Shown: positions 930 through 28,990 of the stretch, piece by piece | How the letters are laid out: each line of letters starts with the position of its first letter | How positions within the stretch are numbered: the stretch's first letter is position 1 | IMG/VR virus record: IMGVR_UViG_3300020576_006967 | Span: 64,001 to 128,000 of that record | Direction: 5' to 3' (one strand) | Length of the DNA stretch: 64,000 nt | Source of the DNA: a virus | Lineage: Duplodnaviria > Caudoviricetes | Made by a program: the position numbers and the translations under genes | Notes under the pieces: generated by a model | What the model saw: the letters and a program-made list of their open reading frames with translations, nothing else | Told to the model about the DNA's origin: nothing | The model's database searches: none

Positions 930-1562
930 ATGATAATGACGACAATTCCATTTACAGCCGAAGAGGTAATAGCTGCCGCTGGTATTCATCCGCTTAAGGT
1001 AAAAAACATATTCCTTTATGGTTCCAGAGTATACGGAACCGCCACGGAAACATCTGATTGGGACATTATTCTAATTGGAAGCCATCTATTGGCTCATGAA
1101 GAGAAGAAAATGACCGTAAATGGCGCTCTTTTGAACATTCATATCTTTACACCAGACTATTTCAAGGACGAACTTAAATTACATCACCCAAGAACTCTAG
1201 AATGCCTTTTTGCGCCAGATTGGATAATACTTAACAACAAGGTTCCTCTTGTTCAAGAGATAAGTGTTAAACGTCTAGTTATGGACACACTTAACGAATC
1301 AAGAAATCGCTGGAAAAGAGCTAAAATGTGCATTTTGGATAGTAATTTCTATACTGGGCAAAAAAGCGCATTTCATTCATTAAGAGTTCTTATATTTGCA
1401 ATACAAATTGCTGAGCATGGAAAAATTGTAGATTATTCTGCGGCCAATTATTTATATCCAGAAATTATGGAGTGTGATGAAATTGACTGGGATTATTATA
1501 AAGAGAAATTCTTGCCGCTTAAAATTGAGTTAGAAGAAAAATTAAAAACATATCACATTTAA
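930..1562 (+). CDS. Pol-beta superfamily nucleotidyltransferase with helical C-terminal domain
   Basis: YGSRVYGTATETSDWD = GS..DxD NTase motif. Confidence 0.8.
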   Translation: MIMTTIPFTAEEVIAAAGIHPLKVKNIFLYGSRVYGTATETSDWDIILIGSHLLAHEEKKMTVNGALLNIHIFTPDYFKDELKLHHPRTLECLFAPDWIILNNKVPLVQEISVKRLVMDTLNESRNRWKRAKMCILDSNFYTGQKSAFHSLRVLIFAIQIAEHGKIVDYSAANYLYPEIMECDEIDWDYYKEKFLPLKIELEEKLKTYHI

Positions 1563-1642
1563 ATCATGGAAGAAATTAAAAGTTGGTGACAAAATATTGG
1601 TCGGAGATATAATATTTTTCTACATATTTATAAATAAAGAAT

Positions 1643-2431
1643 ATGGAAAAACGATATTATGTATATGTTTATTTAGATCAAAGAAAACCTGGAATTTGGA
1701 GTTATGAAGATAAAAATTTCGAATTTCAACCTTTTTACATTGGTAAAGGAACTGGAAAAAGAGAAACTATACACACCACACCAAGTATGTTAAAAATTAA
1801 AAGTTTTAAAACTAGTGTAATAAAAAGTATTATCTCAGAAACAAATGAATTACCAATGCATTATAGAGTATATGACGAAATTGATCAGACCACAGCAGTT
1901 GATTTAGAGATAAAGATGATAAAACATTTTGGAAGGCGAGATATACAAACTGGAATTTTATCAAATTGCACAGATGGTGGGGATGGGACTAATAATTTAA
2001 GTAAAGAAAAAAGAGATAGAAAAGCGCTAAGGAAACAAGTTTTTCAATATGATTTAAGTGGTAATTTTATAAAAATGTGGGATTCTCCAATAACGGTAGA
2101 AGAAACAATTGGTATTTGCAGAACTGGTATTTCAGAGTCTGCTATAAGAAGCGGAACTTGTGAACACTTTTTTTGGAGTTATAATTATTTGGGAGAAAAA
2201 ATAGAGCCAAAAAAAAGACACAATAAAGAAACAATATATAATAAGATTCAACAAATTAATATTGAAACAGATGAGGTTGTTGCTGAGTTTAATTCTGCTA
2301 AAGAGGCTGCTGAAAAACTAAACTTAAATAAAAATGCAAGAAATAAAATTTTAGATGTTGCACTTGGTAAATTAAACAGACATGGAAACCCAAACAAAAC
2401 ATATATGGGATTTAAATGGAAAACTTTTTGA
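1643..2431 (+). CDS. GIY-YIG homing endonuclease with NUMOD1-like repeats
   Basis: YYVYVY..FYIGKG..E..LSNCTDGGDG; FQYDLSGNFIKMW and F.SAKEAA modules. Confidence 0.8.
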   Translation: MEKRYYVYVYLDQRKPGIWSYEDKNFEFQPFYIGKGTGKRETIHTTPSMLKIKSFKTSVIKSIISETNELPMHYRVYDEIDQTTAVDLEIKMIKHFGRRDIQTGILSNCTDGGDGTNNLSKEKRDRKALRKQVFQYDLSGNFIKMWDSPITVEETIGICRTGISESAIRSGTCEHFFWSYNYLGEKIEPKKRHNKETIYNKIQQINIETDEVVAEFNSAKEAAEKLNLNKNARNKILDVALGKLNRHGNPNKTYMGFKWKTF

Positions 2432-2465
2432 AAATTGAAAATTTTTTTATATCTTTATAATCACA

Positions 2466-2603
2466 ATGATAGAGTCTATTTTACATCTTTTGGGTATTTG
2501 CCCTGACAGTATTGGTCATATTGACCTTATGGATATTGTCGTTTGTTATTACAACGAAATTCAAAATTTAATTACACTTATTCGATTAAGAAACGGATCA
2601 TGA
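2466..2603 (+). CDS. Small hypothetical protein (45 aa, not in ORF track)
   Basis: MIESILHLLGICPDSIGHIDLMD...; follows a TATCTTTA host-type promoter; stop overlaps next ATG. Confidence 0.5.
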   Translation: MIESILHLLGICPDSIGHIDLMDIVVCYYNEIQNLITLIRLRNGS

Positions 2604-2764
2604 AAAAAGGAATACATATATTGATGTTTTTGCTTATACTTGTAAATATTGTTTTGTATAAATTAGACCATATTTCAAGGCTAGACTTCGATCAAATGAT
2701 TTTTATGTTCCCATGCGTTTGGATTATTTTATCAACTGGTGATTTTGAACATGAAAAAAAATAG
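2600..2764 (+). CDS. Small membrane protein
   Basis: MKKGIHILMFLLILV.. hydrophobic; coupled to neighbours. Confidence 0.5.
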   Translation: MKKGIHILMFLLILVNIVLYKLDHISRLDFDQMIFMFPCVWIILSTGDFEHEKK

Positions 2765-3059
2765 TTTGCCAAAATATTATGCCAGGCCAGATGATGGCAC
2801 CATTTTTTCTTTAAACGAAGATCGCATAACATATTCAATTGAAGATTCTAAAAAAGAATTTCCATACAATTTGCATCATAAATATACTCAAGAGCATTTG
2901 CTTGCTGTTGATTTTTATAAAGTCACAAAAAAGGATTTTCCAAATCTTAAAAAAATTCAGGATGAATACTATGCTTATATGTCATGGGCCAATAGATCAG
3001 ATGGTCATGGTGGTATTCGTGGAGGTACATTAGAAGAATTCAGAAATTTAAAAAAATAA
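2751..3059 (+). CDS. Hypothetical protein
   Basis: ORF track, operon packing. Confidence 0.55.
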   Translation: MKKNSLPKYYARPDDGTIFSLNEDRITYSIEDSKKEFPYNLHHKYTQEHLLAVDFYKVTKKDFPNLKKIQDEYYAYMSWANRSDGHGGIRGGTLEEFRNLKK

Positions 3060-3061
3060 AC

Positions 3062-3337
3062 ATGCCATCAATAGTTAGAGGTTTTTTAATGGGTATAATA
3101 GTGTCTTTTTTTATTTTACTTGGTGTTTTATACACTGTAAATAAAAACAAAGAGGAAATTATCAAGTCTCAAGTTAAAATTTTGATTGATAAAAAAATTG
3201 ATTCCTTAATTTCAACAAAGGGCCCTTGGGTTGATTCAATCATAACAGCTAGGTATAAAATTATGATGACAGACACTTCTTTTCAAAGAAAGCTCTCAAA
3301 TGCAAAGGGTAGAATAACAAATATTTTTATCAAGTAA
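3062..3337 (+). CDS. Hypothetical membrane-anchored protein
   Basis: N-terminal TM segment. Confidence 0.55.
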   Translation: MPSIVRGFLMGIIVSFFILLGVLYTVNKNKEEIIKSQVKILIDKKIDSLISTKGPWVDSIITARYKIMMTDTSFQRKLSNAKGRITNIFIK

Positions 3338-3338
3338 C

Positions 3339-4736
3339 ATGAAAAAAATTTACATCATTTGTGGTGGAACCATGCAACATGTATCTCCACACTTTGCTTT
3401 AACCGCACCAGCATATGGAAATGTTGGACACGATATTTACTGTGCAATGAAATCACGTTTAGACAACGATTTGAATAGTGAATATTCTGTGAAGCTTATA
3501 CCAACAAAAATGGCGCTTGGTATTCTGAACAATGATGAATTTGAAGAAACATTTAATGTTATGAATCACTTCGGATTTGATTTTATTGAAACCAATGAAG
3601 AATTGAGTAAATTTATTGATGCTTTAATCAAAGATTCAGAAACAAGGTGCATTATAATGGCGGCTGCAGTATGTGATTTTGAACCAAGTGTTATTTCAAC
3701 TGTAATAGAGGAAGGTATGATTGAGAATCCAATTTTTAAATTTGGGAAAGATCAAAAAAGACTTGACTCAAACAATTATTATAGTCTTGATTTGGTACCA
3801 GCAGAAAAAATTGTGCATAAAATCAGAGAGAAGCGCAAAGATATTTTTGTTGTATCATTTAAGACAACCGCAGGTGTTGGAAGAGATGAAACTTACAAGA
3901 GAGGTTTGTTAGCATTAAAAAAGAATAGCTCAAATCTTGTTTTCGCAAACGACATTAGAGATAAAATAAATATGGTAATTACACCTGAAGAATTTCCACA
4001 TGAAGGTGAAACAAGAAGTGAAGCAATTGCTATATTGGCAGATATTACTTTAAAAAGATTGAATCTTACGTTTGGGGATAAAACAATTGTAAGAGATGAT
4101 CAAAGAGCTTTTCCTGAAGAGCTTATCCAAGAAGGTGTAATACCTCAAAATTGGTATGATGTAATGAAATACTTATTTGCTCACAAAGCTTTTAAGCCTC
4201 TTCCAGGAACTGGTAAAACAAGTGGGCATTTTGGTTGTAGAGTGGATGGTAAAGATTTTGAAAGAATCACATCTGAACGTAAAATAAATCACAACGAGAG
4301 CTTCCAAAGAGGTATGATTCCTGTGTATTCATACAAAAACGGCGAACTTATTGTTGGTGGTGCAAGACCTTCTGTGGGTGAAAAAACACAAGAATTAATT
4401 TATCATGAGCTTGGGGATAAAATTCATTCTATTGTACATTTCCACTGTCCTATGCGTGAAGGTTTTGAAGAGCGTGGTGTAATTCCTGTTAGAGAACAAT
4501 TTCATGTAGAATGCGGTAGTAGAGAGTGTGCAATTAACACTTTTGAAGGTATAAAAAATGGTGAAATAATCCCTGGCGTTTATGCAGTACATCTTAAAAA
4601 TCATGGTCCCAATATTGCTTTCCATAAAGATGTTCCACCAGGAGAGATAATAGATTTTATTCACACATACTGGGATTTATCAGAAAAAACTGGTGGAATT
4701 ATAAAGGGAGAAAATACTGTTAAATCACATATGTAA
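3339..4736 (+). CDS. CoaB (phosphopantothenate-cysteine ligase)-like domain fused to class II aldolase/adducin-like domain
   Basis: ICGGT, IIMAAAVCDF, VVSFKT, LVFAND (CoaB-like); RPS..IY..IVHFH..NHG (aldolase II-like). Confidence 0.7.
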   Translation: MKKIYIICGGTMQHVSPHFALTAPAYGNVGHDIYCAMKSRLDNDLNSEYSVKLIPTKMALGILNNDEFEETFNVMNHFGFDFIETNEELSKFIDALIKDSETRCIIMAAAVCDFEPSVISTVIEEGMIENPIFKFGKDQKRLDSNNYYSLDLVPAEKIVHKIREKRKDIFVVSFKTTAGVGRDETYKRGLLALKKNSSNLVFANDIRDKINMVITPEEFPHEGETRSEAIAILADITLKRLNLTFGDKTIVRDDQRAFPEELIQEGVIPQNWYDVMKYLFAHKAFKPLPGTGKTSGHFGCRVDGKDFERITSERKINHNESFQRGMIPVYSYKNGELIVGGARPSVGEKTQELIYHELGDKIHSIVHFHCPMREGFEERGVIPVREQFHVECGSRECAINTFEGIKNGEIIPGVYAVHLKNHGPNIAFHKDVPPGEIIDFIHTYWDLSEKTGGIIKGENTVKSHM

Positions 4737-5481
4737 AAATAAAACCTTTGTGATTTTTTCTTGAACCATTCGCCACAGCAGTTATAGCAGTCTTTTTTAA
4801 ATTTAGTTTCTCAGAAGCTTCTTTTAATGAATTATAAATTGTGTTGTTGGTAGTGCATTTTACTTTTTTGTAAACAAATTTTTTCATTCTAGCTTCTATG
4901 GAGTTTTTTTTATGCTCTTCTGTTTGTTTTTTACCTTTTCTTTGTTTGCTCATTAAGTTTTTAGTTGTCTGAGAACGTTTACTTCCTATGTTTTTTAAAC
5001 GAATTATTTCGTGCTGTTCTTTTGTTAAAAAATCTTTACCTTTTCTTTCTTGCCTAAGTATTTCCTTGCGTTCTTCTGAAACTATTCTTTTACAATTTGC
5101 CTCATATTGAGCAGGTGTTTGTTTTTTACCCTTTCTTTGTTTGCTCCATAATTTTTTAGTTTTTTCAGAGATAATTCTACCAGAGCTACCTTCACCACCA
5201 TCTGTGAAATTGCAAAGTGTGCCAGTTTTTAAATCTAATCTTCCAAATTTAGCGATGAGCTCTTTTTCTAAAGTAAGTGCTTCTTGTTCACTGATATTAT
5301 CTTTGAATTTTTCTATTTTTGGTTCTAAAAAAAGTTGTTTAATTTTATTAAGTTTTCTTTTTAAAAGAGGGTTTGTGCACTCTGACAAATGATCAAACAT
5401 ACGATTTCCAATACCTTTACCAACATATATTGGAATATTTGGTATGTACCTAGTATCGTAATATATATAAACATAAGCCAT
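4720..5481 (-). CDS. GIY-YIG homing endonuclease with NUMOD3 repeats
   Basis: YVYIY..YVGKG..R..E..LCNFTDGGEG; SKQRKGKKQT repeated. Confidence 0.8.
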   Translation of the reverse strand: MAYVYIYYDTRYIPNIPIYVGKGIGNRMFDHLSECTNPLLKRKLNKIKQLFLEPKIEKFKDNISEQEALTLEKELIAKFGRLDLKTGTLCNFTDGGEGSSGRIISEKTKKLWSKQRKGKKQTPAQYEANCKRIVSEERKEILRQERKGKDFLTKEQHEIIRLKNIGSKRSQTTKNLMSKQRKGKKQTEEHKKNSIEARMKKFVYKKVKCTTNNTIYNSLKEASEKLNLKKTAITAVANGSRKNHKGFIFTYVI

Positions 5482-5639
5482 CACTTTATTTTTTTATCAA
5501 GATCCATTTCTATTAATTGTCTAATTCTTTCAGACATCGGAATTTCGAGATTTAAACAGTATAACTTATATTGCTTTCTAAGGTCTTTGGCAATAAGTAT
5601 ATTTATTCTTACTTCTTTATTGTTTTCTTTTATACTCAT
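5481..5639 (-). CDS. Small ribbon-helix-helix protein (52 aa, not in ORF track)
   Basis: MSIKENNKEVRINILIAKDLRKQYKLYCLNLEIPMSERIRQLIEMDLDKKIK; TGATG overlap with the GIY-YIG start. Confidence 0.65.
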   Translation of the reverse strand: MSIKENNKEVRINILIAKDLRKQYKLYCLNLEIPMSERIRQLIEMDLDKKIK

Positions 5640-5686
5640 ATACATAAATATGTATAAAAAACCAAAATATGAAAATATTTATTGAT

Positions 5687-6634
5687 ATGGATTTAAATGA
5701 GTCATATAGAAAAAGGTTAATGGAATTGGCTGGCTTAATAAAGTTGGATGAAGATGCTAAAATTATTCAAATGTACCCCAGTTCAAAAGTTAAAAACCAA
5801 CCAGAGGATATGTTGAAATATGCTGCAGAAAGAGCTGTAAATGGTTTAAGAATCACATCCGAACAATTAAAGTCACTAGATGAAAATCAACAAAAAGAAT
5901 ATGTAAAATTTATTGTAAAATTATTGTTCAATACAAATAATCATCATGGACTTATTGATAATTTTAAAGATACTAATTTTAAATTTTTAAGCAAAAGTGT
6001 TAAGCTTGAATTTTTAATTTCTATTTTACACACATCAGAATGGAAAAGAAAAGATTATTTATATTGGATAATTAATAAAAGCGGTTGTTTTAAAATGTTG
6101 CCAGAAAACGATAAAATAAGCGCAGTTGTTCAATGGGTAATGGATTCAACAAGACTTCTTGCTCCTAGTTGGTTTTATAAAGAGTTAGATTTTTTTTATG
6201 AACTATCTGAATTGGAAAGAGGTAAAATAATATATGATTTGTATGAAAAGAAAAATTATTATCTTTTATATGATTATAATATTTTTAATAGTTTAACCGC
6301 AGAAAACAAAAAATTTTATACTAATAAACTTTCTAAAATTGGAGACAAAATTCCAGATTTTATTTTTGATTTATTAAACCCACAAGAATTGAGTGACTAT
6401 ATACACAACTTAAAGGGTAGAATTCCATATAGTATGGGAATAGGAGAACACCAATTTAATAATTTGCCAAACGAACTTAAAAGAACATATGTAGTAAATA
6501 AAATAAGAGCAAGTAAGGTTTATAAACTAACACAACAGGAATTAAGTTCTTTAACACCAGATGAACAGGAAAAATTTAAGTCAAGATTGGTCGGTACACC
6601 AAATCCTAAAGCTGGAACACATGTGACATTTTGA
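5687..6634 (+). CDS. Hypothetical protein with helical repeats, possibly late/virion-associated
   Basis: Start MDLNESYRKRLMELAGL after TATTTAT motif; repeated F..L...K..Y helices. Confidence 0.55.
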   Translation: MDLNESYRKRLMELAGLIKLDEDAKIIQMYPSSKVKNQPEDMLKYAAERAVNGLRITSEQLKSLDENQQKEYVKFIVKLLFNTNNHHGLIDNFKDTNFKFLSKSVKLEFLISILHTSEWKRKDYLYWIINKSGCFKMLPENDKISAVVQWVMDSTRLLAPSWFYKELDFFYELSELERGKIIYDLYEKKNYYLLYDYNIFNSLTAENKKFYTNKLSKIGDKIPDFIFDLLNPQELSDYIHNLKGRIPYSMGIGEHQFNNLPNELKRTYVVNKIRASKVYKLTQQELSSLTPDEQEKFKSRLVGTPNPKAGTHVTF

Positions 6635-6677
6635 TGTTTGTGTATTTTTTGTTATCTTTGAATAACAAAAATAAGAC

Positions 6678-6995
6678 ATGGAATTTAATAAGGAAAAACA
6701 AATCAGTAAAATGAAACCAGCTGTAGACAAGTTGGTTTCACGCCTTGAAAAGAAAGGTATATATTTTAAACATTCAGATGGTGAGTTTGAAAATGTGCTT
6801 TTTTCATCTGGTGATCTTGAATTGAAAATGTCTCACCACTCTTTTTATAGATATTCTGGTATTGCCGTGCTTTGTTATGGCAATGATGATACAAACACAT
6901 CTAAAACAGTTGATGTGACTGATGATATGTACATGAGCATATTCATGGAACCAATTGTTGAAAACCACTTTAAAAAATCAAAGGTTTTAAAATAA
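6678..6995 (+). CDS. Hypothetical protein
   Basis: ORF after TTTG..TATCTTTG promoter. Confidence 0.55.
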   Translation: MEFNKEKQISKMKPAVDKLVSRLEKKGIYFKHSDGEFENVLFSSGDLELKMSHHSFYRYSGIAVLCYGNDDTNTSKTVDVTDDMYMSIFMEPIVENHFKKSKVLK

Positions 6996-7007
6996 CCTTG
7001 CGGCTAT

Positions 7008-7499
7008 ATGAGTGAATTAAAAGAAATTGTTCAAGTTAATCAAAAACATTTTGATTATCTTATTGAGGTAGCTAAAAAAGCTACCTGCAGCAGATCTAAA
7101 TGTGGAAGCATTATTTTAAAATCCTGGGCTACACCTAATTTTATAGAAATTATTGGCGAAGGATATAATTCTATGCCAACAGACATTCAAACCGATTGTT
7201 TCAAAGACGGTCTTCCAGATAATTTTAAAAGTGATAAGACGTGTTGTATTCATGCCGAGCAAAGAGCTATCATAGAAGCATTCAAAAACCATCCTAAAAG
7301 CGTTCCTGGCAGCGATCTTTTGTTTATAAGATTAGATGACCAGGGTAATCCAAAACACTCAGGAGAACCTTATTGTACCATTTGTAGTAAGATGGCTTTA
7401 GATGCTGGTATATCCAGATTTTTTCTTTGGCACAAAGAGGGTTGGACCGCATACGACACAAAATATTATAACGAACTTTCATTTAAATACAATCCATGA
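7008..7499 (+). CDS. Cytidine/dCMP deaminase family protein
   Basis: HAEQRA and PYCTIC zinc motifs. Confidence 0.8.
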   Translation: MSELKEIVQVNQKHFDYLIEVAKKATCSRSKCGSIILKSWATPNFIEIIGEGYNSMPTDIQTDCFKDGLPDNFKSDKTCCIHAEQRAIIEAFKNHPKSVPGSDLLFIRLDDQGNPKHSGEPYCTICSKMALDAGISRFFLWHKEGWTAYDTKYYNELSFKYNP

Positions 7500-7741
7500 T
7501 TTTAAAAACAAAATATGTTAGAACAAAAGAAAACAGAATTATTGTTTTCTCAGAATTAAATCAACACTCAGAATTTAAAAATTTTGAACCGATATCAGCT
7601 GGTTTTATATCCATAGGTGTTGGTGAAGATGGAAACCCAGATTGTTCTTGTTATGGAGAGAGTGTTTCTCTTAATTTAAAAAGCGATGAAGCTGAAGATA
7701 CGCTTCTTGCTAAAAGACAAATTCTTGGATTGTGGTTATGA
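7496..7741 (+). CDS. Hypothetical phage protein
   Basis: ORF track; PISAGF..CYGESVSL. Confidence 0.55.
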   Translation: MILKTKYVRTKENRIIVFSELNQHSEFKNFEPISAGFISIGVGEDGNPDCSCYGESVSLNLKSDEAEDTLLAKRQILGLWL

Positions 7742-7929
7742 TTACAGATGAACATATAGAAAAAAACGGTAAGCAAATAAAGAAGGTGTCGCTTATTTAT
7801 GTTGATGGTGATCCAAAAACTTGTGATGGATGTGATGAGCAGAAAGTTTGCGCTTCAGTAAGAGATATTGTTGGTAACGTTATGATAATTTGCAAAGATT
7901 GTTTGCAAGAAATCATTGATCATTTTTAG
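7732..7929 (+). CDS. Small zinc-finger-like protein
   Basis: CDGC..CKDC. Confidence 0.5.
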   Translation: MVMITDEHIEKNGKQIKKVSLIYVDGDPKTCDGCDEQKVCASVRDIVGNVMIICKDCLQEIIDHF

Positions 7930-8134
7930 GCTTCTTTTTTGTTTCTGGCCATTCTAGCCAACCATAAACATAAGGAGCAATTTCTATGTTTCCTTGAAGT
8001 GCTTCAACATAGTTTTTCGTGGATTGAGCCATTTTACCTTCTCGTGCCAATATATCATCTATTGCTCTTTGAATTTGTTGTTGTACTGCTATAACTATAT
8101 TTTTTCTTGCTGCATTTTTTACTTTTTCTTTCAT
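7913..8134 (-). CDS. Hypothetical protein
   Basis: ORF track, follows 8143-8805. Confidence 0.5.
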   Translation of the reverse strand: MKEKVKNAARKNIVIAVQQQIQRAIDDILAREGKMAQSTKNYVEALQGNIEIAPYVYGWLEWPETKKKPKNDQ

Positions 8135-9486: not shown

Positions 9487-10392
9487 TTAAAGATATTCTT
9501 TTACAATTTTAAATTTGGTGCTGTGTCTTAATTTTCTTAAAGATTTTTCTTTAATTTGTCTAACACGCTCCCTGGTTAAATCGACTTTCACCCCAATTTC
9601 TTCAAGACTTTGAGCTGGTACACCTTCCTCTAAACCGAAAAATGCAACTATTACCTCTTGTTCTTTTTGAGTTAATCTAGATGCTAACATTTGTTTAATT
9701 ACAAACTTCAAATCTTCATTTATTAAACCAGCATCAACGTTTAAAGATGGATCCATTTTTATAAGATCAAGAAGTGTTGTTTGATTGTCGTCGCTAAAAG
9801 GTGTATCTAAGGATTGTGTTTTATTTGAGGTTGTTAGAAGCAAAGCAACATCTTCAATTAAAAAATTCTTTGCTGGAAATTTTTCAGAAAGATAAAAAGC
9901 AATTTCTTCAATAGATGGAGGTCTCTCAAGCTCTTGTTCTAATGCCGATGTTGCATTTCTTATTTTGTTTAGATCGGCAACTTTATTTAATGGTAATCTT
10001 ATTGTTTTTGAATGTTCGTTTATTTGTTGCATAATAGATTGACGAATCCACCACACAGCATAAGAGATAAATTTAAAGCCTCTGGAATGATCAAAACGTT
10101 TTGCGGCCTTAATTAAACCTTCGTTTCCAGCTGATACGAGATCTGGTAGAGATAAACCTTGATTTTGGTATTGTTTTGCAACACTAATAACAAATCTTAA
10201 ATTTGATTTTGCCATTTTGTTCACTGCTAACTGAGATGCATGCGGGTCTTCGTTGTATGCTTGAATTATTTTAGCAAGCTCAACTTCTTCTTCTGCTGTA
10301 ATCCCAGGGATTGTTCCAATTTCATTTAAGTACTTTTCGAAAGAAATTGATTCTCTGTTTGTGATTTGTTTAACGATTTTAAGTTGTCTCAT
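9487..10392 (-). CDS. rpoD: Bacteroidota-type RpoD/SigA sigma-70 factor
   Basis: MRQLKIVKQITNRES..YLNEIG; NLRFVISVAKQY; GFKFISYAVWWIRQSI; LTRERVRQIKEK. Confidence 0.9.
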   Translation of the reverse strand: MRQLKIVKQITNRESISFEKYLNEIGTIPGITAEEEVELAKIIQAYNEDPHASQLAVNKMAKSNLRFVISVAKQYQNQGLSLPDLVSAGNEGLIKAAKRFDHSRGFKFISYAVWWIRQSIMQQINEHSKTIRLPLNKVADLNKIRNATSALEQELERPPSIEEIAFYLSEKFPAKNFLIEDVALLLTTSNKTQSLDTPFSDDNQTTLLDLIKMDPSLNVDAGLINEDLKFVIKQMLASRLTQKEQEVIVAFFGLEEGVPAQSLEEIGVKVDLTRERVRQIKEKSLRKLRHSTKFKIVKEYL

Positions 10393-10444: not shown

Positions 10445-10481
10445 GTAAAAAAATGAAAATAAATTGAGAAATTTTAAAAAT

Positions 10482-10521
10482 AAAAAACCCTCAACTTACT
10501 ATTGTTCGGTTGAGGGTTTTT
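10482..10521 (-). terminator. Intrinsic terminator closing the tmRNA locus
   Basis: aaaaaccctcaac / gttgagggttttt 13-bp inverted repeat. Confidence 0.8.
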
Positions 10522-10530
10522 GTTCGATCC

Positions 10531-10623
10531 TTAAACCAATTCAGCCACAAGGACTGCACTAGTTTCAGGCGTATTAGCGTAAGCGATTGCGCTTTGAGCT
10601 AATACCTTTGTTAGGTTTTTGCC
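10531..10623 (-). other. tmRNA tag reading frame (A)GKNLTKVLAQSAIAYANTPETSAVLVAELV*
   Basis: Resume context ATCAAAC-GGC resembles Bacteroidota tags that start with Gly; 30 codons then TAA within a hairpin. Confidence 0.65.
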
Positions 10624-10700
10624 GTTTGATAGGCTGATTAATCTCTCCTTGTAGCTTTTGATTCGTGTTCGAAATCATTCGCCCCCATTTTTTCAGTTAA

Positions 10701-10883
10701 TTACTTAACCGAGGTTGTAGTAGCTGCTGTTGTCATTGTATCAGCGCAAACCGCTTTACAAGAATCAACCGCTACAGTGTCACACTTAGGCGCTTCCGTT
10801 TCCGTAGCTACTTCAGTGGCCGTATTTGTACAAGCTCCTAGAGCTAATGCCAAAACGATCAATAGTTTTTTTGTTGTTTTCAT
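10701..10883 (-). CDS. Small lipoprotein inside the tmRNA intervening segment
   Basis: MKTTKK-LLIVLALALGAC lipobox; Thr/Ala-rich body with three more Cys. Confidence 0.8.
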   Translation of the reverse strand: MKTTKKLLIVLALALGACTNTATEVATETEAPKCDTVAVDSCKAVCADTMTTAATTTSVK

Positions 10884-10884
10884 C

Positions 10885-10952
10885 TAGTGGAAGCGCAGGG
10901 TATAGAGCCCTGGTTACACAAATTTCGACTACATATCAACGAGCTTAATCTG
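10885..10952 (-). ncRNA. ssrA: tmRNA acceptor piece (circularly permuted two-piece tmRNA)
   Basis: GATTAAGCTC..TGTAGT..ATTTGTG (P2), T-arm CAGGG-CTCTATA-CCCTG, acceptor strand CGCTTCC, discriminator A, then CTA; 5' end approximate. Confidence 0.85.
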
Positions 10953-10956
10953 ATTG

Positions 10957-10986
10957 TAAATATACAGAAATTTTTCCAATTCCAAA
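10957..10986 (-). promoter_or_regulatory. Bacteroidota housekeeping-type promoter for the tmRNA precursor
   Basis: TTTG-N18-TATATTTA, close to the -33/-7 consensus TTTG..TAnnTTTG. Confidence 0.6.
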
Positions 10987-17556: not shown

Positions 17557-18468
17557 ATGAAAATACTTTTCCCAAGCAGTCCTCTTAGTTTTAAAGAGGT
17601 TGACGATAATTTTACTGGTGAACTACATGCTGCAAAACTTGTTGGCTTTGATTGGTTTTTATTTGATCACGATGAGTTTGTGAGAACTGGAAAATTGAAA
17701 ACAAATATTAAAGAAAAAAAAGAAAATAAAGAACAAATTATATTAAGAGGTTGGATGTTACAAGCTGAACAATATTATGAATTGTATTGCCAACTTGAGG
17801 AACAATATGGGTTGCTTTTGATTAATAACCCAGATCAATATTTAAATTGTCATTATTTTCCGAATGCTTATCAACATATAATGGAACACACTTCTAAAAG
17901 TTGGTGGTCTGGTGATTGGAATGGGCGTGAAGATTCAAACAAACCAGAAGATATTAGTTGGGGACCCGTAAGGAGCCTTTTAGATAATAGCGATCTTATT
18001 ATTAAGGATTATGTAAAATCAGCAAAGGGTGAACCTGAACTTTTTATTCTTGGTAAAGAATTAAACAATGAAGATTTTGGTAAAAGAGTTGGTAGGTTTA
18101 TTGAAGCTAGAGGAAAATTATTTAATAAAGGAATAGTTTTAAAAAAAGTTGAAAAACTGAAACTATATGAAAACCAGACAAATGAGTATAGGTTCTTTTT
18201 TATTAACAAAAAAATGTTTATGTTTGGATATAATTCAGAAGATGTTAGCATAAAAGCATCAATGCCAACATTTGACATGGTTTCAATTTTAATGAAGGTG
18301 GCAAAAAATATTGAAAGTGATTTCTTCACAATAGATATTGCAGAGAAAGAAGATGGAACTTGGATGATTTTAGAAACTGGCGATGGTCAAGTGTCTGGTT
18401 TGCCAAGCAAACAAGATGAAATAAAATTTTATAATACATTAAATAACACCTTAAGTGGTGTAGAATAA
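17557..18468 (+). CDS. ATP-grasp protein (R2K-like clade)
   Basis: RGWML, KDYVKS, EYRFF, FFTIDIA..ILETGDGQVSG. Confidence 0.75.
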   Translation: MKILFPSSPLSFKEVDDNFTGELHAAKLVGFDWFLFDHDEFVRTGKLKTNIKEKKENKEQIILRGWMLQAEQYYELYCQLEEQYGLLLINNPDQYLNCHYFPNAYQHIMEHTSKSWWSGDWNGREDSNKPEDISWGPVRSLLDNSDLIIKDYVKSAKGEPELFILGKELNNEDFGKRVGRFIEARGKLFNKGIVLKKVEKLKLYENQTNEYRFFFINKKMFMFGYNSEDVSIKASMPTFDMVSILMKVAKNIESDFFTIDIAEKEDGTWMILETGDGQVSGLPSKQDEIKFYNTLNNTLSGVE

Positions 18469-18960
18469 ATGGGAACAAGACAAACAGTTAAGATAGGTCC
18501 ATATTTGGAAGTTACTGGAAAAGTAAAAATAGAAGAAGAATTGCGAGTTTTGACATGCAGCAATAGTGAATGTGTTAAGCATAAAAAAAATGAAGCAATT
18601 AAGACTAATTGCTGTCCTGAATGTGGAACCAAAACAAGTATTAAGCAATATATCAATATTGAGGAGTGCGATGTAAATAAATATGTTTGTAACTATGATG
18701 AATCAAATATATTTGAGGATAATCTTATATCTTATAATTATTTAGATGGGTCGATTTTATTGCCAAATGAAGCATGGACAGAAAAAAATATGGGATTTGA
18801 TTCATATGAAAGTGGGGTCATAGATTTAAATGACGTAGATTCAAAGACTGGCATTGAATGGTTTGAAAAAAAATATGACAAACAAATAGAAATTTTGAAA
18901 AAAATTTTTGGAGAAGAGGTTGTCAAGGTAAAATTTGGATTAATAAGTTACTGCAATTAA
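18469..18960 (+). CDS. Hypothetical zinc-ribbon protein
   Basis: CSNSEC..CPECG. Confidence 0.55.
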   Translation: MGTRQTVKIGPYLEVTGKVKIEEELRVLTCSNSECVKHKKNEAIKTNCCPECGTKTSIKQYINIEECDVNKYVCNYDESNIFEDNLISYNYLDGSILLPNEAWTEKNMGFDSYESGVIDLNDVDSKTGIEWFEKKYDKQIEILKKIFGEEVVKVKFGLISYCN

Positions 18961-18987
18961 TTAAAAAATAGATATACAAATAACAAT

Positions 18988-20928
18988 ATGACAGTACAAT
19001 TAAAGCATTCATTTGGAATAATAGAATTTACGAGAGCGGGAAATGCGTATTTAATTTCAGAAAGTAAAAAAATAAATAAAGACGTTTTCATCCCAAGAGG
19101 AAGAACTGGAGAGGCCTTTAATGGAGATACGGTATTCGTTGCATTTAAACCTGGTAGAATTCCAGGTGAAACAATTGGCCATGTTATAGGTGTAAAATCT
19201 AGGTTTAGAAATGACTATCTAGGTACTTGTGAAATAAATGATGAAACGGGCGAGTTTGTAGTTAAAGCTACTTCTAAAAAATTTCCAATAGAATTTACAA
19301 TTCCAAAGCTTTACATAGGTCTAGCTAAGGTTGGAGACAAAGTTTCTGTTAAATTAAGTAAGTGGGATAAAAAATTAAACAAGCCTATCGGTCTTATCAA
19401 AGAAGTGTTGGGTAAAGCTGGTTTACACTCTACTGAAATGAAGGCGATTTTACTTGAAAACAATATTGAATCTAAATTTCCAGATTCAGTAATGAAAGAA
19501 GCGGAAGAAATTAACTTTGAAATTGATGCTGAAGAAATTGCTAAAAGAGAGGATTTTAGAGAGGTTGTTTGTTTAACAATTGATCCAAAGGATGCTAAAG
19601 ATTTTGATGATGCTTTATCTTTTAAAAAAATTGACAACAACATTTATGAAGTTGGAGTCCATATTGCAGACGTTTCTCATTATATGAAACCAGAAAGCGA
19701 GTTGGATGTAGAAGCTTACAGAAGATCAACATCCACATATTTAGTCGATAGATGCATTCCAATGCTTCCAGAGAGGCTTTCAAATGGAGTGTGCTCTCTT
19801 AGACCAAATGAAGAAAAATTGTGTTTCTCAGCTATTTTTATGTTGTCTTACACTGATCCAAGTGTAAACGGGCCAGCAAGAGCAAAAATTATAAATTCTA
19901 GATTTGCTAGAACTGTAATTAAGTCTGGAAAAAGATATTCATATGAAGATGCTCAGGAATTAATTGAAAACACAACACAAGCAGTCGATAATTATGATTG
20001 GGCAGTTCTTACATTAAATTTATTAGCAAAAGCATTAAGGACTGAAAGGTTTGAGCATGGCGCTGTGTCTTTTGAAAAACGTGAAGTGAAATTCAAGCTT
20101 GACGAAGATGGGTCGCCAATTGGTGTGTATTTTAAAGAATCAAAAGATTCAAATAAATTGATTGAAGAGTTTATGCTATTGGCTAATCAATCTGTAGCTA
20201 AATATATTGGGGAAAAAGATTTACCTTGTATATATAGAACCCATGCATTGCCATCTATGGAGCGTTTACAGGAGTTATCTATATTTGTTGAACAGTTTGG
20301 TTACACATTCAAAGTAAGCGAAGACGACGAGGCAAATAAAGAAGCTTTAAATAAATTACTTTTGGAAGTAAAAGGTTCAAATCATGCCAACATTATAGAA
20401 ACTGTAGCTGTTAGATCTATGTCAAAAGCTATTTACACAACAGCTGCACTTGGTCACTATGGTCTTGGATTTAAATATTATGGACATTTCACAAGTCCAA
20501 TTCGTAGATATCCAGATGTTATTTTACACAGATTGCTTGAAAGTTTGATGGCCACTGGAAACGTAGTTGCACCAAGGTTGCAAATTCAGTGTGATCATTG
20601 TTCTGAATTAGAAGGAAAAGCTGTAAAAGCAGAAAGAGATTCAATTAAGTTTAAACAAACAGAGTTTATGCAAAACAAAATTGGGCAAACATACGAAGGC
20701 GTTGTTTCTGGTGTTTCTAATTGGGGTTTACATGTAGAAATAAAAGAAAATGGGTGCGAAGGCATGATTGGAACTGGAGAAATGGGCGCTTTGGGTTATG
20801 TGCTTGATGAAAAAAATTATAAATTTATTAAAGAAAACAATGTAAAAATTTCTCTTGGAGACAAGGTGAATGTGAAAGTTTTCGGTGTAAATTTAACGAA
20901 GAGACAAATTGATCTTAATTTAATTTAA
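18988..20928 (+). CDS. rnr: Ribonuclease R (RNB family)
   Basis: TIDPKDAKDFDDALS, VHIADVS, HFTSPIRRYPD, C-terminal S1 domain. Confidence 0.92.
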   Translation: MTVQLKHSFGIIEFTRAGNAYLISESKKINKDVFIPRGRTGEAFNGDTVFVAFKPGRIPGETIGHVIGVKSRFRNDYLGTCEINDETGEFVVKATSKKFPIEFTIPKLYIGLAKVGDKVSVKLSKWDKKLNKPIGLIKEVLGKAGLHSTEMKAILLENNIESKFPDSVMKEAEEINFEIDAEEIAKREDFREVVCLTIDPKDAKDFDDALSFKKIDNNIYEVGVHIADVSHYMKPESELDVEAYRRSTSTYLVDRCIPMLPERLSNGVCSLRPNEEKLCFSAIFMLSYTDPSVNGPARAKIINSRFARTVIKSGKRYSYEDAQELIENTTQAVDNYDWAVLTLNLLAKALRTERFEHGAVSFEKREVKFKLDEDGSPIGVYFKESKDSNKLIEEFMLLANQSVAKYIGEKDLPCIYRTHALPSMERLQELSIFVEQFGYTFKVSEDDEANKEALNKLLLEVKGSNHANIIETVAVRSMSKAIYTTAALGHYGLGFKYYGHFTSPIRRYPDVILHRLLESLMATGNVVAPRLQIQCDHCSELEGKAVKAERDSIKFKQTEFMQNKIGQTYEGVVSGVSNWGLHVEIKENGCEGMIGTGEMGALGYVLDEKNYKFIKENNVKISLGDKVNVKVFGVNLTKRQIDLNLI

Positions 20929-20929
20929 A

Positions 20930-21442
20930 TTGTCGAACAGTTCTGAAATAAAAAACAATTCTCAAAAAAGAGGATTAAACTACTGGTTAAAAATGACTTT
21001 TAAAAGTCGTATGGCCAGGTTGCACATTCGTCTTAAAGCCAGGAGAAGACTAGCGTTTTATATAAAAATGCCAGAAATAAACAACATGCAAAAAAGAACA
21101 ATTGAGTTGTTTATGACTTTGTTGAAAAGTAAAGAGACAAGTTTAAATTTTTCTCCAGAATCTAAAATACGCTTTATAGAATCAAACACAATTTGGGTTA
21201 CTATGAGTAGTGTTTCTGATAGTCAGTGTGTAATTAATATTATTGATGAAGGCACTCAAGACGAGGCGCATTCTCATGAGGTTACAATACCAAGAGAATA
21301 TGCTTTTAATATGATGGATGAATTTGATCTTGAGCTTGAAAAAAGATTTAGAGGCATTGAGGCCGCTAAAAAAAGAATTGTCGTAGATGATCTTGATAAG
21401 CTTATAAAACAAGTAAAGTCAGAACAAAACAATGGAAGATAG
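20930..21442 (+). CDS. Hypothetical protein
   Basis: ORF track. Confidence 0.55.
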   Translation: MSNSSEIKNNSQKRGLNYWLKMTFKSRMARLHIRLKARRRLAFYIKMPEINNMQKRTIELFMTLLKSKETSLNFSPESKIRFIESNTIWVTMSSVSDSQCVINIIDEGTQDEAHSHEVTIPREYAFNMMDEFDLELEKRFRGIEAAKKRIVVDDLDKLIKQVKSEQNNGR

Positions 21443-21818
21443 GCCACCACTAGATAAATCAAATAAAATTTATACTTTAACCCCAAGGTTTATTACAAAT
21501 TTTATTGCTTATTATAGAAAAATAAGACTCAAAAGATATAAGCACAAAAAAATCAAAGAAGCAAAAACCACATTTGATAGAAATTATTTTATTAAATTTA
21601 AATTGAAGCTTAATGACTCGTTAAATCCGCAAATAAGTGATTTTGAATATGAAACTGTTATTCCAGCAAAAGCAATATATTTTGCGAAGCTTTTTCTAGA
21701 GCGTGACATTAAAAATAAAATTTCAATTGATGTTACAAGCTGGGAAGAAATGAGTGAGGAAGAACATGAAGAATTTCAAAACTCAATTAAAGAACACATT
21801 GAATCCAAAGGCAATTAA
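21432..21818 (+). CDS. Hypothetical protein
   Basis: ORF track. Confidence 0.55.
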   Translation: MEDRPPLDKSNKIYTLTPRFITNFIAYYRKIRLKRYKHKKIKEAKTTFDRNYFIKFKLKLNDSLNPQISDFEYETVIPAKAIYFAKLFLERDIKNKISIDVTSWEEMSEEEHEEFQNSIKEHIESKGN

Positions 21819-24067
21819 TTAAGTGGGTTTACAAAAGATTCATCAAGCAGCATTTCTTTTAATGATGTTTGTCTTTCTTCGTAATGAAAATTGTTTACAG
21901 CTGTCTCTAGGGCTTTTCTCTGGCCAACAAATACTGCAAATTTTTTAGCTCTAGTAAGGCCTGTGTAAATTAAATTTCTAAACAACATTCTGTAGTATTG
22001 ATTCATAACTGGCAATATAACACAATCAAATTCAGAACCCTGAGCTTTGTGTATTGATATTGAATACGCTAAATCTAAATCTAGAATATCGCTTCTTTTA
22101 TATTCTACTTCACGATCAGAAAACTTTACTGTAAGTTCATTTGTGCTTGCGTAAACATCAATTATTTTTCCGATGTCTCCATTGTATACCTCTAAATCGT
22201 AATTGTTTTTAGTGTGTATAACTTTATCTCCCTCTCTTAAAATTCTATCTTTAAGTTTTATTTCACCCTTATCACTTGATGGTGGATTTACAATTGATTG
22301 AATTTTTGCATTCATTTTTGCGTTTCCGAGATCTCCAACATTCATTGGGATAAGTATTTGTATTTCCTTTTCTTTGCCTAAATATTTTGGAAGACTCTCC
22401 ATGTAAAGTTTAACAGTCATGTCTATTACATCCAAACCGTATCTTAAAGAAGACCAGGCTGGGAATTTGGTTTTATCATAACCAGATTCGGCTAGACCAG
22501 AATCTACAAAAACACAATCAGTTCCATTTGTCCAAAGTTCAGGGTTTAACAAGGGGGTTTCTATGTTTGGTATTGATCCAGTGTTTATATCGTGTGCATA
22601 TTTTATAATTAAAGATTCCTTTCCTTGTCTAAAAATTTTATTAATTTTAAATATAGGAACAACACCGCTGTTAATTAAATCTTTGAAAAAATTACCTGGC
22701 CCAACTGGCTCTAATTGATCAGAGTCGCCGATAAAAATTATTTGAGCGTCATATGGTGTTGCTCTTAATAAAGCCGCAGCTAGATTAATGTCTTTCATAG
22801 AAGATTCATCAATAATTATGACATCTGCATTTATTGTATTGTTTTCATTTTTTAAAAAACCTCCATTTATGTGATCCCATGAAAGAAGTCTGTGTATCGT
22901 GGTGGCTTCCATTCCTATAACTTCAGTCATTCTTTTTGCAGCTCTACCAGTTGGCGCTGCCAAAACAATGTCTTTGCCAAGATCTAACAAAATGTCCACA
23001 ACTTTTTTAGTTATTGTGCTTTTTCCAGTTCCAGGACCGCCAGTTAAAATAGAAATACCGCACCCTAAAACGCCTTTTACTGCAGAAGTCTGTTCGTCAC
23101 TTAATTGTATTTTATCATTGTTACTGTTTAATAAATCTTCGTGGACATGCACTTTGCTATTGTTTTGCATTAAGGCGTGCACTTTTTCGCAACAATAAGT
23201 TTCATTGAAATAAACTTTTCTTTCGTAATACCTTTTTTCCCCTCTTTTTACGGTAAGCGTTTTTATCTCTTGCTTTTGTTCCATTGCATCTAGCAACAAT
23301 TCAAAATTAGGTTTTTCAGCAATGTTTAAAAGTTCTAAAGACTTTGATGAGATTTGTGATAGTAATAAATAACAGTGACCTTCATTCGTGGCTTGTTCTA
23401 GAACAAAGTTGATTGATGCCTTTATTCTTTGTGGACTATCTTCTTTAAAGCCTGCTTTAAGAGCTATTTTATCAGCTGTCATGAAACCTATTCCAGAAAT
23501 ATCACTTGTTAGTTTGTAGGGATTATTTAAAATTTGAGCTACGCAATTTTTACCATAAAATTCATATATTTTTGTTGCATACAGACTTGTTATGCCATGT
23601 TGTTGAAGAAAGATCATAATGCCATTCATTTCATTGTTTTTCTCCCAGGTTTCCTTTATAGCTTTTAGTTTTGCTTTTGAAATTCCTGGTACTTTTAACA
23701 TTTCATCTGGGTTTTCATTTAGTGTTTTTATAACATCTTCACCAAAGTGTTCTACAATTCTGTTGGCGATAACTGGGCCAATACCAGAAAAAAAGCTAGA
23801 CTGTAAATACGATCTTAATCCTTCTTTGCTAGAAGGCTGTTTTTCAATTGCAAAAGTCGCCTTAAATTGTTTGCCAAATTTTGGATGAGCAGTCCACTCA
23901 CCCTGGAATTCGTATGTGCAGCCTTCGTGTATGTTTGGTTGAGTAATTGTGATCTTTGTATCTTTCTTCATTTCAAGCGTTTCCACACTTAAAACATAAT
24001 AATTATTTTCTTCGTTTAAATAGAGTATTTTCTCAATTACGCCCGTAACTTTTTCTTCTTTTTGCAT
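21815..24067 (-). CDS. recD2: RecD2-like SF1B helicase
   Basis: HhH GIGP, GGPGTGKS, APTGRAA, IIDESSM, IHKAQGSE, YTGLTRA. Confidence 0.92.
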   Translation of the reverse strand: MQKEEKVTGVIEKILYLNEENNYYVLSVETLEMKKDTKITITQPNIHEGCTYEFQGEWTAHPKFGKQFKATFAIEKQPSSKEGLRSYLQSSFFSGIGPVIANRIVEHFGEDVIKTLNENPDEMLKVPGISKAKLKAIKETWEKNNEMNGIMIFLQQHGITSLYATKIYEFYGKNCVAQILNNPYKLTSDISGIGFMTADKIALKAGFKEDSPQRIKASINFVLEQATNEGHCYLLLSQISSKSLELLNIAEKPNFELLLDAMEQKQEIKTLTVKRGEKRYYERKVYFNETYCCEKVHALMQNNSKVHVHEDLLNSNNDKIQLSDEQTSAVKGVLGCGISILTGGPGTGKSTITKKVVDILLDLGKDIVLAAPTGRAAKRMTEVIGMEATTIHRLLSWDHINGGFLKNENNTINADVIIIDESSMKDINLAAALLRATPYDAQIIFIGDSDQLEPVGPGNFFKDLINSGVVPIFKINKIFRQGKESLIIKYAHDINTGSIPNIETPLLNPELWTNGTDCVFVDSGLAESGYDKTKFPAWSSLRYGLDVIDMTVKLYMESLPKYLGKEKEIQILIPMNVGDLGNAKMNAKIQSIVNPPSSDKGEIKLKDRILREGDKVIHTKNNYDLEVYNGDIGKIIDVYASTNELTVKFSDREVEYKRSDILDLDLAYSISIHKAQGSEFDCVILPVMNQYYRMLFRNLIYTGLTRAKKFAVFVGQRKALETAVNNFHYEERQTSLKEMLLDESFVNPLN

Positions 24068-24156
24068 AGTCCAAATGTAGTTAATTTGTCTGGGATTTAC
24101 AATAAAATTTGGTAATTATTAATTTAATGTTTAAATTCGTGATATAAAAAAATACA

Positions 24157-24375
24157 ATGACTTCAAAAAAAATAATCAAAATCCTTAAAGATAAATTTCC
24201 AAAAAAAGAAATTATAGGTATTCGTGGTTTAACAAAGGTGGGAGAGCACGACTTCAGCTTTAGATATGTATTTAGAAGCGGCGATCATTTATCAATTAGT
24301 GATTTGATGACATTGACAGAGCAAAAAGAAAAAACAAAAAAAGATAGTAAAAAACAAAAAAGCACGGTTAAATAA
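24157..24375 (+). CDS. Hypothetical protein
   Basis: ORF track. Confidence 0.5.
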   Translation: MTSKKIIKILKDKFPKKEIIGIRGLTKVGEHDFSFRYVFRSGDHLSISDLMTLTEQKEKTKKDSKKQKSTVK

Positions 24376-26142: not shown

Positions 26143-26143
26143 C

Positions 26144-26638: not shown

Positions 26639-26662
26639 AAAATAAATCATTAAATTTATAAC

Positions 26663-28487: not shown

Positions 28488-28525
28488 TGAAACTTTTTTA
28501 TTTAAATAACGTATAAGTAGTAAAG

Positions 28526-28990
28526 GTGGGAAAAATTAAAAAGATAAAAGAACCTTTTAGAATTGAAAATAGGAAGGCAAAATACGAATATAAACTTTTA
28601 GAAAGTTTTGATTGCGGTATTGTGTTGAAGGGCACCGAGATAAAGTCTATACGAGAGAATTCGGCTAATATAGGCGCTGCTTATTGTTATTTGTCAAACG
28701 GACAAGTTATAATAAAAAACATGCATATTTCTGAGTGGAAACATGCTACTACCACACACGATCCAACAAGGGACAGGGTTCTGTTGTTGAAAAAGAAAGA
28801 AATAGAAAAAATTACCAGAGAAGTTAAGACTGCTGGTATAACTCTTGTGCCGACGGTTCTTTACGAAAAAAAGAACATAGCAAAAGTTATCATCAGTTTA
28901 GCCAAAGGTAAAAAAACTAGAGATAAAAGAGATAAAATTCGTGAAGACAATATTAAGCGTGACACAGACAGAGAAATGAATTCTTTTTAG
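28526..28990 (+). CDS. smpB: SsrA-binding protein SmpB
   Basis: ENRKAKYEY..GIVLKGTEIKSIR..HDPTRDRVLLL..GKK..DKR tail. Confidence 0.92.
   Translation: MGKIKKIKEPFRIENRKAKYEYKLLESFDCGIVLKGTEIKSIRENSANIGAAYCYLSNGQVIIKNMHISEWKHATTTHDPTRDRVLLLKKKEIEKITREVKTAGITLVPTVLYEKKNIAKVIISLAKGKKTRDKRDKIREDNIKRDTDREMNSF

Follow-up and report, generated by a model that had tools for sequence, protein, structure and literature searches.

Two-piece transfer-messenger RNAs (tmRNAs) are known from the Alphaproteobacteria, a betaproteobacterial lineage, the cyanobacteria and some mitochondria, and their coding pieces typically keep the pseudoknots PK1 and PK2 (PMC3985003). Such RNAs are the subject of Keiler et al. 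2000 and Sharkady & Williams 2004, as cited in PMC3985003 and PMC11915505, and the Rfam families of the alpha, beta and cyano lineages (RF01849-RF01851) have been merged as RF04321. Two-piece genes have also been published for marine myophages, namely the Methylophilales phage Melnitz, pelagimyophages and cyanophages, and the two-piece form accounts for 53 of the 133 unique phage tmRNAs reported by ARAGORN (PMC9004378), while the joint occurrence of tmRNA and SmpB has been described in huge phages (Al-Shayeb et al. 2020, PMC7162821). Here we analyze a locus on the minus strand of a 64,000-nucleotide stretch of viral DNA, hereafter the window, which corresponds to bases 64001-128000 of the 188,933-bp IMG/VR virus record IMGVR_UViG_3300020576_006967 (linear, 74% complete according to CheckV and about 31% G+C). 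An original prediction, made from the sequence alone, had taken this locus for a circularly permuted two-piece tmRNA gene in a Bacteroidota-linked large phage. That claim is supported by covariation, by the coding signature of the tag, by the presence of SmpB and RNase R genes and by the lack of any other tmRNA; taken with the architecture of the locus, these observations establish that the gene is real, and we consider it very probable that it functions as a tmRNA (ssrA) gene in a large phage, most likely one that infects Bacteroidota. Since the literature already covers phage two-piece tmRNAs (PMC9004378) and huge-phage tmRNA with SmpB (PMC7162821), the novelty lies in a compact lineage with an unusual tag and a protein-coding spacer.

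The locus resembles bacterial two-piece tmRNA genes in its gene order on one strand, in the joining of the two pieces through an acceptor stem and helix P2, in the presence of G3.U70 and A73, in a tag frame devoid of a start codon and in a break located downstream of the tag. It departs from them in scoring far below the cut-offs of the lineage models, in showing no visible pseudoknots and in a P2 that ends 12 nt before the resume codon, as well as in a tag of 28-30 amino acids ending in AELV, an atypical T-loop, a protein-coding spacer and a Bacteroidota-linked phage carrier. With the marine myophages (PMC9004378) it shares a permuted ssrA gene carried by a phage. In those phages, however, ARAGORN detects the genes, which fall among alphaproteobacterial or cyanobacterial host lineages, whereas the present gene is missed at default settings, fits no lineage model and, unlike them, is accompanied by a phage SmpB, a phage RNase R and a protein gene in the spacer; where the Melnitz ssrA gene presents a glutamine riboswitch in its 3' domain, the present one harbors a protein gene between its pieces. 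Possession of its own rescue RNA together with SmpB is a feature that the phage has in common with huge phages and related jumbo phages. Unusual spacers of permuted tmRNA genes, containing a tRNA-Ala gene or a repetitive element, have been published (PMC11915505), and here too the intervening segment holds extra genetic material; unlike in those cases, the cargo is a protein-coding gene under selection.

Read on the minus strand, the elements of a two-piece gene that the original prediction had listed were all found where it had placed them (Table 1), and the order of acceptor piece, intervening segment and coding piece is the same in all homologues. The two halves are complementary as claimed, with GGGGGCG pairing with CGCTTCC over 7 bp (G3.U and G4.U included), ACACGAAT with ATTTGTGT over 8 bp and GCTACA with TGTAGT over 6 bp. 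Complementarity also extends to the distal helix of P2, but in a slightly different register: instead of the GAG.TTAATC/GATTAA.CTC pairing first proposed, covariation favors GAGATTAATC/GATTAAGCTC (10 bp with one A.G mismatch), giving a long helix P2 of 8 + 6 + 10 bp. The proposed promoter is present as letters, TTTG-N18-TATATTTA, and its TATATTTA block is identical in all seven variants of the alignment described below. Neither the Bacteroidota promoter motif TTTG..TAnnTTTG (7 matches versus 5.2 expected) nor the local TGTATATTTA motif is enriched in the window, and the element is thus a promoter only putatively.

The comparative analysis was carried out on seven sequence variants (alignment A3), made up of the window and six homologous loci (L109, L110, L136, L138, L140 and L141). 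A search with the 60-residue protein nested in the spacer returned two relatives, with 88% and 82% identity, whose contigs carry the whole locus (L109 and L110). The locus recurs exactly as in the window in four more assemblies, which stem from other sequencing runs, and its sequence occurs in at least five independent assemblies. The closer relatives of the neighboring sigma factor (63-66% identity) lie on contigs L136 and L138-L141, all of which carry the RNA directly upstream of the sigma gene. The intervening segment measures 200-201 nt in the window, L109, L110 and L136, the last of which retains the lipoprotein spacer, and only 16-17 nt in L138, L139, L140 and L141. The T-loops of L138-L141 are more canonical (UUCGUUA or UUCGUAG). 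Other searches were less productive: blastn against 50,697 phage records gave no match, DNA pattern scans (five of IMG/VR and two of metagenome contigs) yielded chance matches or nothing, and single-protein queries in IMG/VR with SmpB and with the upstream 118-residue open reading frame (ORF) returned no relatives. The sigma relatives from IMG/VR (best 52%) do not have the gene beside sigma, and no tmRNA was found in the 21 kb around smpB on a 150-kb NCBI contig; the only source of a homologue upstream of the same sigma protein (P0128) was a separate JGI contig of 20 kb (L136).

Thirty-six base pairs were tested on the seven variants (7 in the acceptor stem, 5 in the T-arm, 8 in P2a, 6 in P2b and 10 in P2c). 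Standard pairs fill 93.7% of the pair cells, a share that drops to 39-53% if the 3' partners are shifted by 1-3 columns. Both partners have changed in six pairs (12 cells), found in the acceptor stem, P2b and P2c. The observed pairing, number of double-change cells and covariation score were not reached in any of 500 shuffles. In the acceptor stem, pairs 4:69 and 5:68 covary, the pair beside G3.U70 being C-G, U-G or A-U and the following one U-G, C-G or U-A, and G3.U70 and A73 are invariant; two pairs swap A-U and G-C in P2b, and three pairs covary in P2c. The covariation check among homologues that the original prediction had called for, made on three sequences and on the seven variants, therefore came out in its favor, with the pairing of acceptor stem and P2 kept through compensatory changes. 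The stem of the T-arm is invariant and positioned as expected, with G53-C61, U55, C56 and A58 present, although its loop, described below, is atypical. RNAcofold yields the same architecture in seven of seven variants, although the comparison of cofold energies with those of shuffled sequences (z = -2.2 to -3.8 only) is a weak test. Among the variants the terminator stem takes five forms of different sequence, each fully complementary; the terminator escaped the scan tool because its loop is longer than 8 nt. This loop (10496-10508 in the window; 11-13 nt among variants) keeps a GAAG.A.AGUA-like motif while the stem changes completely, and the preservation of the motif on a replaced stem suggests that the loop has a function of its own.

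The claim of a tag ORF was likewise upheld, both by a coding substitution signature and by the lack of a conserved start codon. The frame is open over 28-30 codons in all variants, with a 3-nt indel that keeps the frame, and its product reads GKNLTKVLAQSAIAYANTPETSAVLVAELV in the window, GKNQKALAVSAMEWAAIRETNATLVAELV in L109 and GKATKSLALSAMEYASIKETSAQVAELV in L138. Synonymous and non-synonymous codon differences amount to 9/10, 6/10 and 6/10 in frame, versus 0-3/14-20 in the other two frames, and include swaps between codon families (Ser AGC/TCA; Leu TTA/CTT/CTC/CTA). Among the window, L109 and L110, the sequence upstream of AGCC, comprising the tRNA-like and P2 part, is 86-92% identical, as against 59-70% for the tag; the upstream region is conserved as RNA and the tag as protein. 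The offset between G1 and GGC is 63, 64 or 65 nt among variants, and the upstream part therefore stands in all three phases relative to the tag. Moreover, in the window and L140 the stretch from the preceding in-frame stop to GGC contains no ATG, GTG or TTG in the tag frame. A selected peptide that lacks a conserved start codon and begins 12 nt after P2 has the appearance of a tmRNA tag, and GGC may be taken as its resume codon by analogy with the tags of related phages and Bacteroidota, which mostly begin with Gly.

The statement that CCA is not encoded was correct, yet describes an ordinary condition. The 3' end reads A-CTA in the window and in L109 and A-CCA in L110, all 16 phage tRNA genes (record positions 932-8049 and 186524-186596, outside the window) present a discriminator-C-non-C end without encoded CCA, and the Bacteroidota-type host tmRNA genes examined also lack an encoded CCA. 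No gene for a CCA-adding enzyme or alanyl-tRNA synthetase (AlaRS) was found in the 189-kb record, and host enzymes are therefore presumed. The phage does encode a presumed protein partner, an SmpB that scores above the cut-off on the NCBIfam SmpB equivalog models and aligns over its full length, C-terminal tail included, to solved SmpB structures, and a likely third member of the rescue set, an RNase R with RNB, CSD2 and S1 domains (625 bits on TIGR02063, cut-off 597.85). A search with RF00023 over the 189-kb record revealed no standard tmRNA (best match 9.5 bits), and the permuted gene is the only tmRNA candidate in this smpB-bearing record.

From these features we infer how the RNA would be processed, charged and used for tagging, and how the nested gene would be expressed. 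A single transcript would comprise the acceptor piece, the 201-nt intervening segment and the coding piece, and end at the intrinsic terminator. RNase P would cut before G10686 and a tRNase Z-type 3' endonuclease after A10888, and the two pieces would pair through the 7-bp acceptor stem (with G3.U70 and A73) and the long P2, rebuilding a tRNA-like domain with the T-arm. CCA would be added by the host CCA-adding enzyme and alanine by the host AlaRS, after which phage SmpB would bring the charged RNA to stalled ribosomes. Translation would then resume at or near GGC 10623, adding a 30-residue tag that ends in AELV, and phage RNase R would probably remove the broken mRNAs.

Table 1. Coordinates, in the window, of the features of the permuted tmRNA locus and of associated genes.
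Feature	Position	Strand	Detail or basis
Promoter-like element TTTG-N18-TATATTTA, upstream of acceptor piece	10957..10986	-	Read from sequence
Parts of promoter-like element	TTTG 10986-10983; 18-nt gap; TATATTTA 10964-10957	-	Read from sequence
Acceptor piece	10888..10950	-	RF04321 alignment, ARAGORN -ps80 structure, covariation, cofold of 7 variants
P2 3' strands in acceptor piece	P2c 10950-10941; P2b 10933-10928; P2a 10923-10916	-	
T-arm CAGGG/CTCTATA/CCCTG (loop CUCUAUA)	10912-10896	-	
Acceptor 3' strand CGCTTCC; discriminator A73	10895-10889; 10888	-	
Intervening segment, 201 nt	10687..10887	-	Starts with CTA (10887-10885) at CCA position
Lipoprotein ORF, 60 amino acids, nested in intervening segment	10701..10883	-	ORF list
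Coding piece, tRNA-like and P2 part	10624..10686	-	
Acceptor 5' strand GGGGGCG; D-loop analogue AAUGAUUUCGA	10686-10680; 10679-10669	-	
P2 5' strands in coding piece	P2a 10668-10661; P2b 10655-10650; P2c 10645-10636	-	
12-nt single strand AGCCUAUCAAAC	10635-10624	-	Between P2c and GGC
Tag reading frame, GGC (proposed resume codon) to TAA (10533-10531)	10531..10623	-	Product GKNLTKVLAQSAIAYANTPETSAVLVAELV
Intrinsic terminator ending coding piece	10476..10521	-	Sequence; stem CCCUCAAC/GUUGAGGG, 13-nt loop, U-run
Terminator hairpin proper, followed by T-run	10516-10488	-	
Sigma factor gene neighboring tmRNA locus	9487-10392		
Phage smpB, 154 amino acids, presumed protein partner	28526..28990	+	PF01668, 165.6 bits
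Phage RNase R, 646 amino acids, likely third rescue-set member	18988..20928	+	TIGR02063 RNase_R equivalog

Several observations weigh against a functional tmRNA, beginning with its detection by standard tools. The ARAGORN check suggested in the original prediction was run on both the native window and the re-joined sequence, and no tmRNA was called in either at default or -ps settings; Rfam at gathering thresholds likewise finds nothing in the window. Under E-value thresholds, RF04321 (tmRNA_permuted) matches the native sequence end to end at 10933-10540 with 36.1 bits, the second-best match in the whole record being of 14.5 bits. This match counts in favor of the gene and, like the compensatory changes, points to more than chance (E = 1.2e-5 over the region, 7.9e-7 over the 189-kb record). 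This score nonetheless lies below the gathering cut-off of 47, as do those of the homologues (39.5 bits in L138 and L141, 39.3 in L140, 33.0 in L136 and 32.3 in L109). Among the lineage models (RF01849, RF01850 and RF01851), for which scores refer to the best match per clan only, alpha_tmRNA gives 13.3 bits on the window (cut-off 50) and cyano_tmRNA 26.7 bits on the short-spacer homologues (cut-off 70), and the beta two-piece model is not represented among the matches listed for the locus and its homologues. ARAGORN finds the gene only at 80% thresholds (-ps80), a setting at which 680 kb of DNA from related phages gives about 50 false calls, and its match was kept out of the evidence owing to this rate. 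A survey with RF04321 of 49 records of IMG/VR sigma relatives produced a single match, of 32 bits, in L018. This candidate permuted tmRNA (L018, 7659-7843) was rejected, for it consists of the 3' end of a one-piece tmRNA and a chance GGGAGCGAA half downstream, and it stands as a caution on the use of RF04321 below threshold; with a spurious match of 32 bits, an RF04321 score by itself proves little. Given the false calls of ARAGORN at -ps80 and this spurious match, scores alone are unable to decide the case.

The RNA and its tag also present features that count against rescue activity. P2a is the weakest of the helices, with 85.7% of its cells paired and mismatches in several variants. The T-loop, CUCUAUA, is atypical and varies in the homologues (GUCGUA, UUCGUUA in L138, UUCGUAG), and the D-loop analogue AAUGAUUUCGA fits the model (UGGnUUCGAC type) except for GA in place of the consensus GG. 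Inspection of the seven variants revealed neither PK1 nor any other conserved pseudoknot; the room for pseudoknots consists of 12 nt between P2c and GGC and some 10 nt between the stop codon and the terminator, and the candidates GCC/GGC, UAUC/GGUA and loop AUAG with CUAU were dropped because they are not conserved among variants. Reduced tmRNAs without pseudoknots do exist, however, and the lack of visible ones does not therefore exclude function. Finally, the tag ends in AELV and not in the usual Ala-Ala, and in L109, L110 and L136 the tag shares its frame with an ATG located two bases before G1, making a conventional ORF of 50-51 amino acids possible in these three variants; in the other four the same ATG is out of frame and meets a stop after 16 codons.

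The degenerate T-loop and D-loop analogue, the absence of visible pseudoknots and the in-frame ATG of three variants would all agree with a tmRNA-derived RNA that no longer rescues ribosomes, acting instead as an RNase P/tRNase Z processing signal for the lipoprotein mRNA or as a decoy that titrates SmpB, and in which the supposed tag would be a small protein translated by conventional means. A precedent can be found in phage DS6A, whose tmRNA, reduced to the tRNA-like domain, inhibits the host tmRNA (PMC4131195, PMC11915505). We nevertheless regard this explanation as unlikely. In sister phages the RNA is complete although its spacer is only 16-17 nt long and no lipoprotein gene is present; hence processing a lipoprotein mRNA is not its only role. 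Conventional translation of the tag is at odds with the window and L140, where GGC is not preceded by an in-frame start codon, and with purifying selection that acts on the tag from GGC onward while the upstream part shifts phase. The invariance of G3.U70 and A73 and the retention of a full-length SmpB with its C-terminal tail also speak for rescue. That the locus might be a decaying pseudogene, derived from a rearranged one-piece tmRNA gene and without present function, is suggested by the sub-threshold scores, the atypical T-loop and the intact one-piece genes of related phages, but decay is hard to reconcile with compensatory changes in three helices and in the terminator, with purifying selection on the tag, with an identical sequence in at least five independent assemblies, with a layout kept across phages whose sigma factors are only 63-66% identical, or with its standing as sole tmRNA candidate in a genome that retains smpB; we judge it very improbable. 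As for the idea that this is just a small lipoprotein gene of the ordinary kind, flanked by untranslated regions with fortuitous complementarity, the ORF in question (10883-10701) is indeed real and conserved, but its flanks covary, match a tmRNA model with E = 7.9e-7, and persist and pair in homologues that do not possess the ORF (L138, L140 and L141), so that we count this explanation as refuted.

Within what we take to be a functional permuted tmRNA gene, the spacer of about 200 nt announced by the original prediction proved correct in size (201 nt), but its content, a conserved 60-codon lipoprotein ORF, went unmentioned there. The ATG of this ORF lies 1 nt after the CCA position and its end 14 nt before G1, and the product carries a signal peptide with the lipobox LGAC and matches no Pfam-type family. 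Synonymous and non-synonymous differences of 10/7, 11/11 and 6/7 in frame, versus 1-6/9-20 in other frames, indicate a 60-residue lipoprotein under purifying selection. In the literature searched, we came across no other permuted tmRNA whose spacer, which is normally discarded during maturation, holds a protein gene subject to purifying selection. The existence of sister phages with a 16-17-nt spacer implies that the ORF was gained or lost inside an already permuted gene. By analogy with what phage lipoproteins often do, one might guess at a role in superinfection exclusion. The gene would presumably be expressed from the tmRNA transcript, either on the precursor or on the excised spacer. On a bolder and distinctly tentative view, the spacer might constitute a cargo slot, from which the lipoprotein mRNA is cut out by the enzymes that mature the tmRNA, in a gene permuted independently from a one-piece ancestor in Bacteroidota phages and reduced to a pseudoknot-free core. 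Cleavage by tRNase Z after A73 and by RNase P before G1 would then release an almost leaderless lipoprotein message.

The attribution of the phage to the Bacteroidota agrees with its sigma factor and SmpB, both of which are closest to Bacteroidota proteins. The named top matches of the sigma factor are all Bacteroidota RpoD/SigA (54-56% identity over the full length), and most named SmpB matches also belong to the Bacteroidota. The nearest bacterial SmpBs (up to 50% identity) come from genomes with their own one-piece tmRNAs, which encode tags of the GE(N/S/T)NYA(L/M)AA type that we take to be typical of the Bacteroidota, and the phage protein is closer to bacterial Bacteroidota SmpB (50%) than to the SmpB of phages of the L098-L102 type (39-41%). 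These related jumbo phages harbor one-piece tmRNAs of 380-505 nt (45.6-97 bits on RF00023), accompanied in three of them by SmpB, with tags of 21-23 amino acids (e.g. GETFAKLQAVGLLRTEEVYAA) that mostly begin with Gly and, in four of the five, no encoded CCA; all five are missed by ARAGORN defaults and found by Rfam. The present gene differs from theirs in being permuted and in its compact size, with pieces of about 67 and about 210 nt. In the largest catalogue, bacterial genomes assigned to the Bacteroidota contain 24,380 standard tmRNA instances versus 48 permuted ones, for which the authors warn of misbinning (PMC11915505, Supp. Table 2), and the assertion that Bacteroidota tmRNAs are one-piece thus holds very nearly. 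Given scores far below the alpha and cyano cut-offs, and given that the related phages and the nearest bacteria both have one-piece genes, the permutation may plausibly have arisen independently in this phage lineage.

The genes for the two protein partners lie in a conserved neighborhood (17557-28990) that comprises, in this order, an R2K ATP-grasp gene (17557-18468), RNase R, a RecD2-type helicase (21815-24067, minus strand), an M3 oligopeptidase (24376-26142), a SIR2 gene (26663-27379), an AAA ATPase (27366-28487) and SmpB. Relatives, namely L133 and the P0016-bearing contig, show synteny for RNase R, RecD2, M3, AAA and SmpB. Right after smpB, an ORF at 29031-30092 (plus strand) presents a weak LAGLIDADG-like match (22.8 bits) and may encode a homing endonuclease. 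Elsewhere in the window, a UvrD-type helicase ORF of 932 amino acids (45122-47920, plus strand) shows a match to an intein-splicing domain at residues 285-549, with 31.3 bits, below the Pfam cut-off of 35.8.

The default settings of ARAGORN and the gathering scores of Rfam both miss a tmRNA lineage that comparative evidence supports, and phage or metagenome surveys based on these cut-offs will consequently undercount tmRNAs and report "SmpB without tmRNA"; the survey of huge phages relied on ARAGORN for its tmRNAs (PMC7162821). For the nested gene, the short-spacer sister phages offer a natural comparison of the locus with and without it and, should the cargo-slot view be true, one and the same gene would supply an RNA for ribosome rescue and a membrane protein, much as in mitochondrial "tRNA punctuation". 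If active, the RNA, which shows no visible pseudoknots, only 12 nt from P2 to the resume codon, a T-loop that drifts and an AELV-ending tag of 30 residues, would also set bounds on what trans-translation needs. The bacteria with the nearest SmpB have tags of the GENNYALAA type, unlike that of the phage, so that in infected cells the fate of tagged proteins may be a different one.

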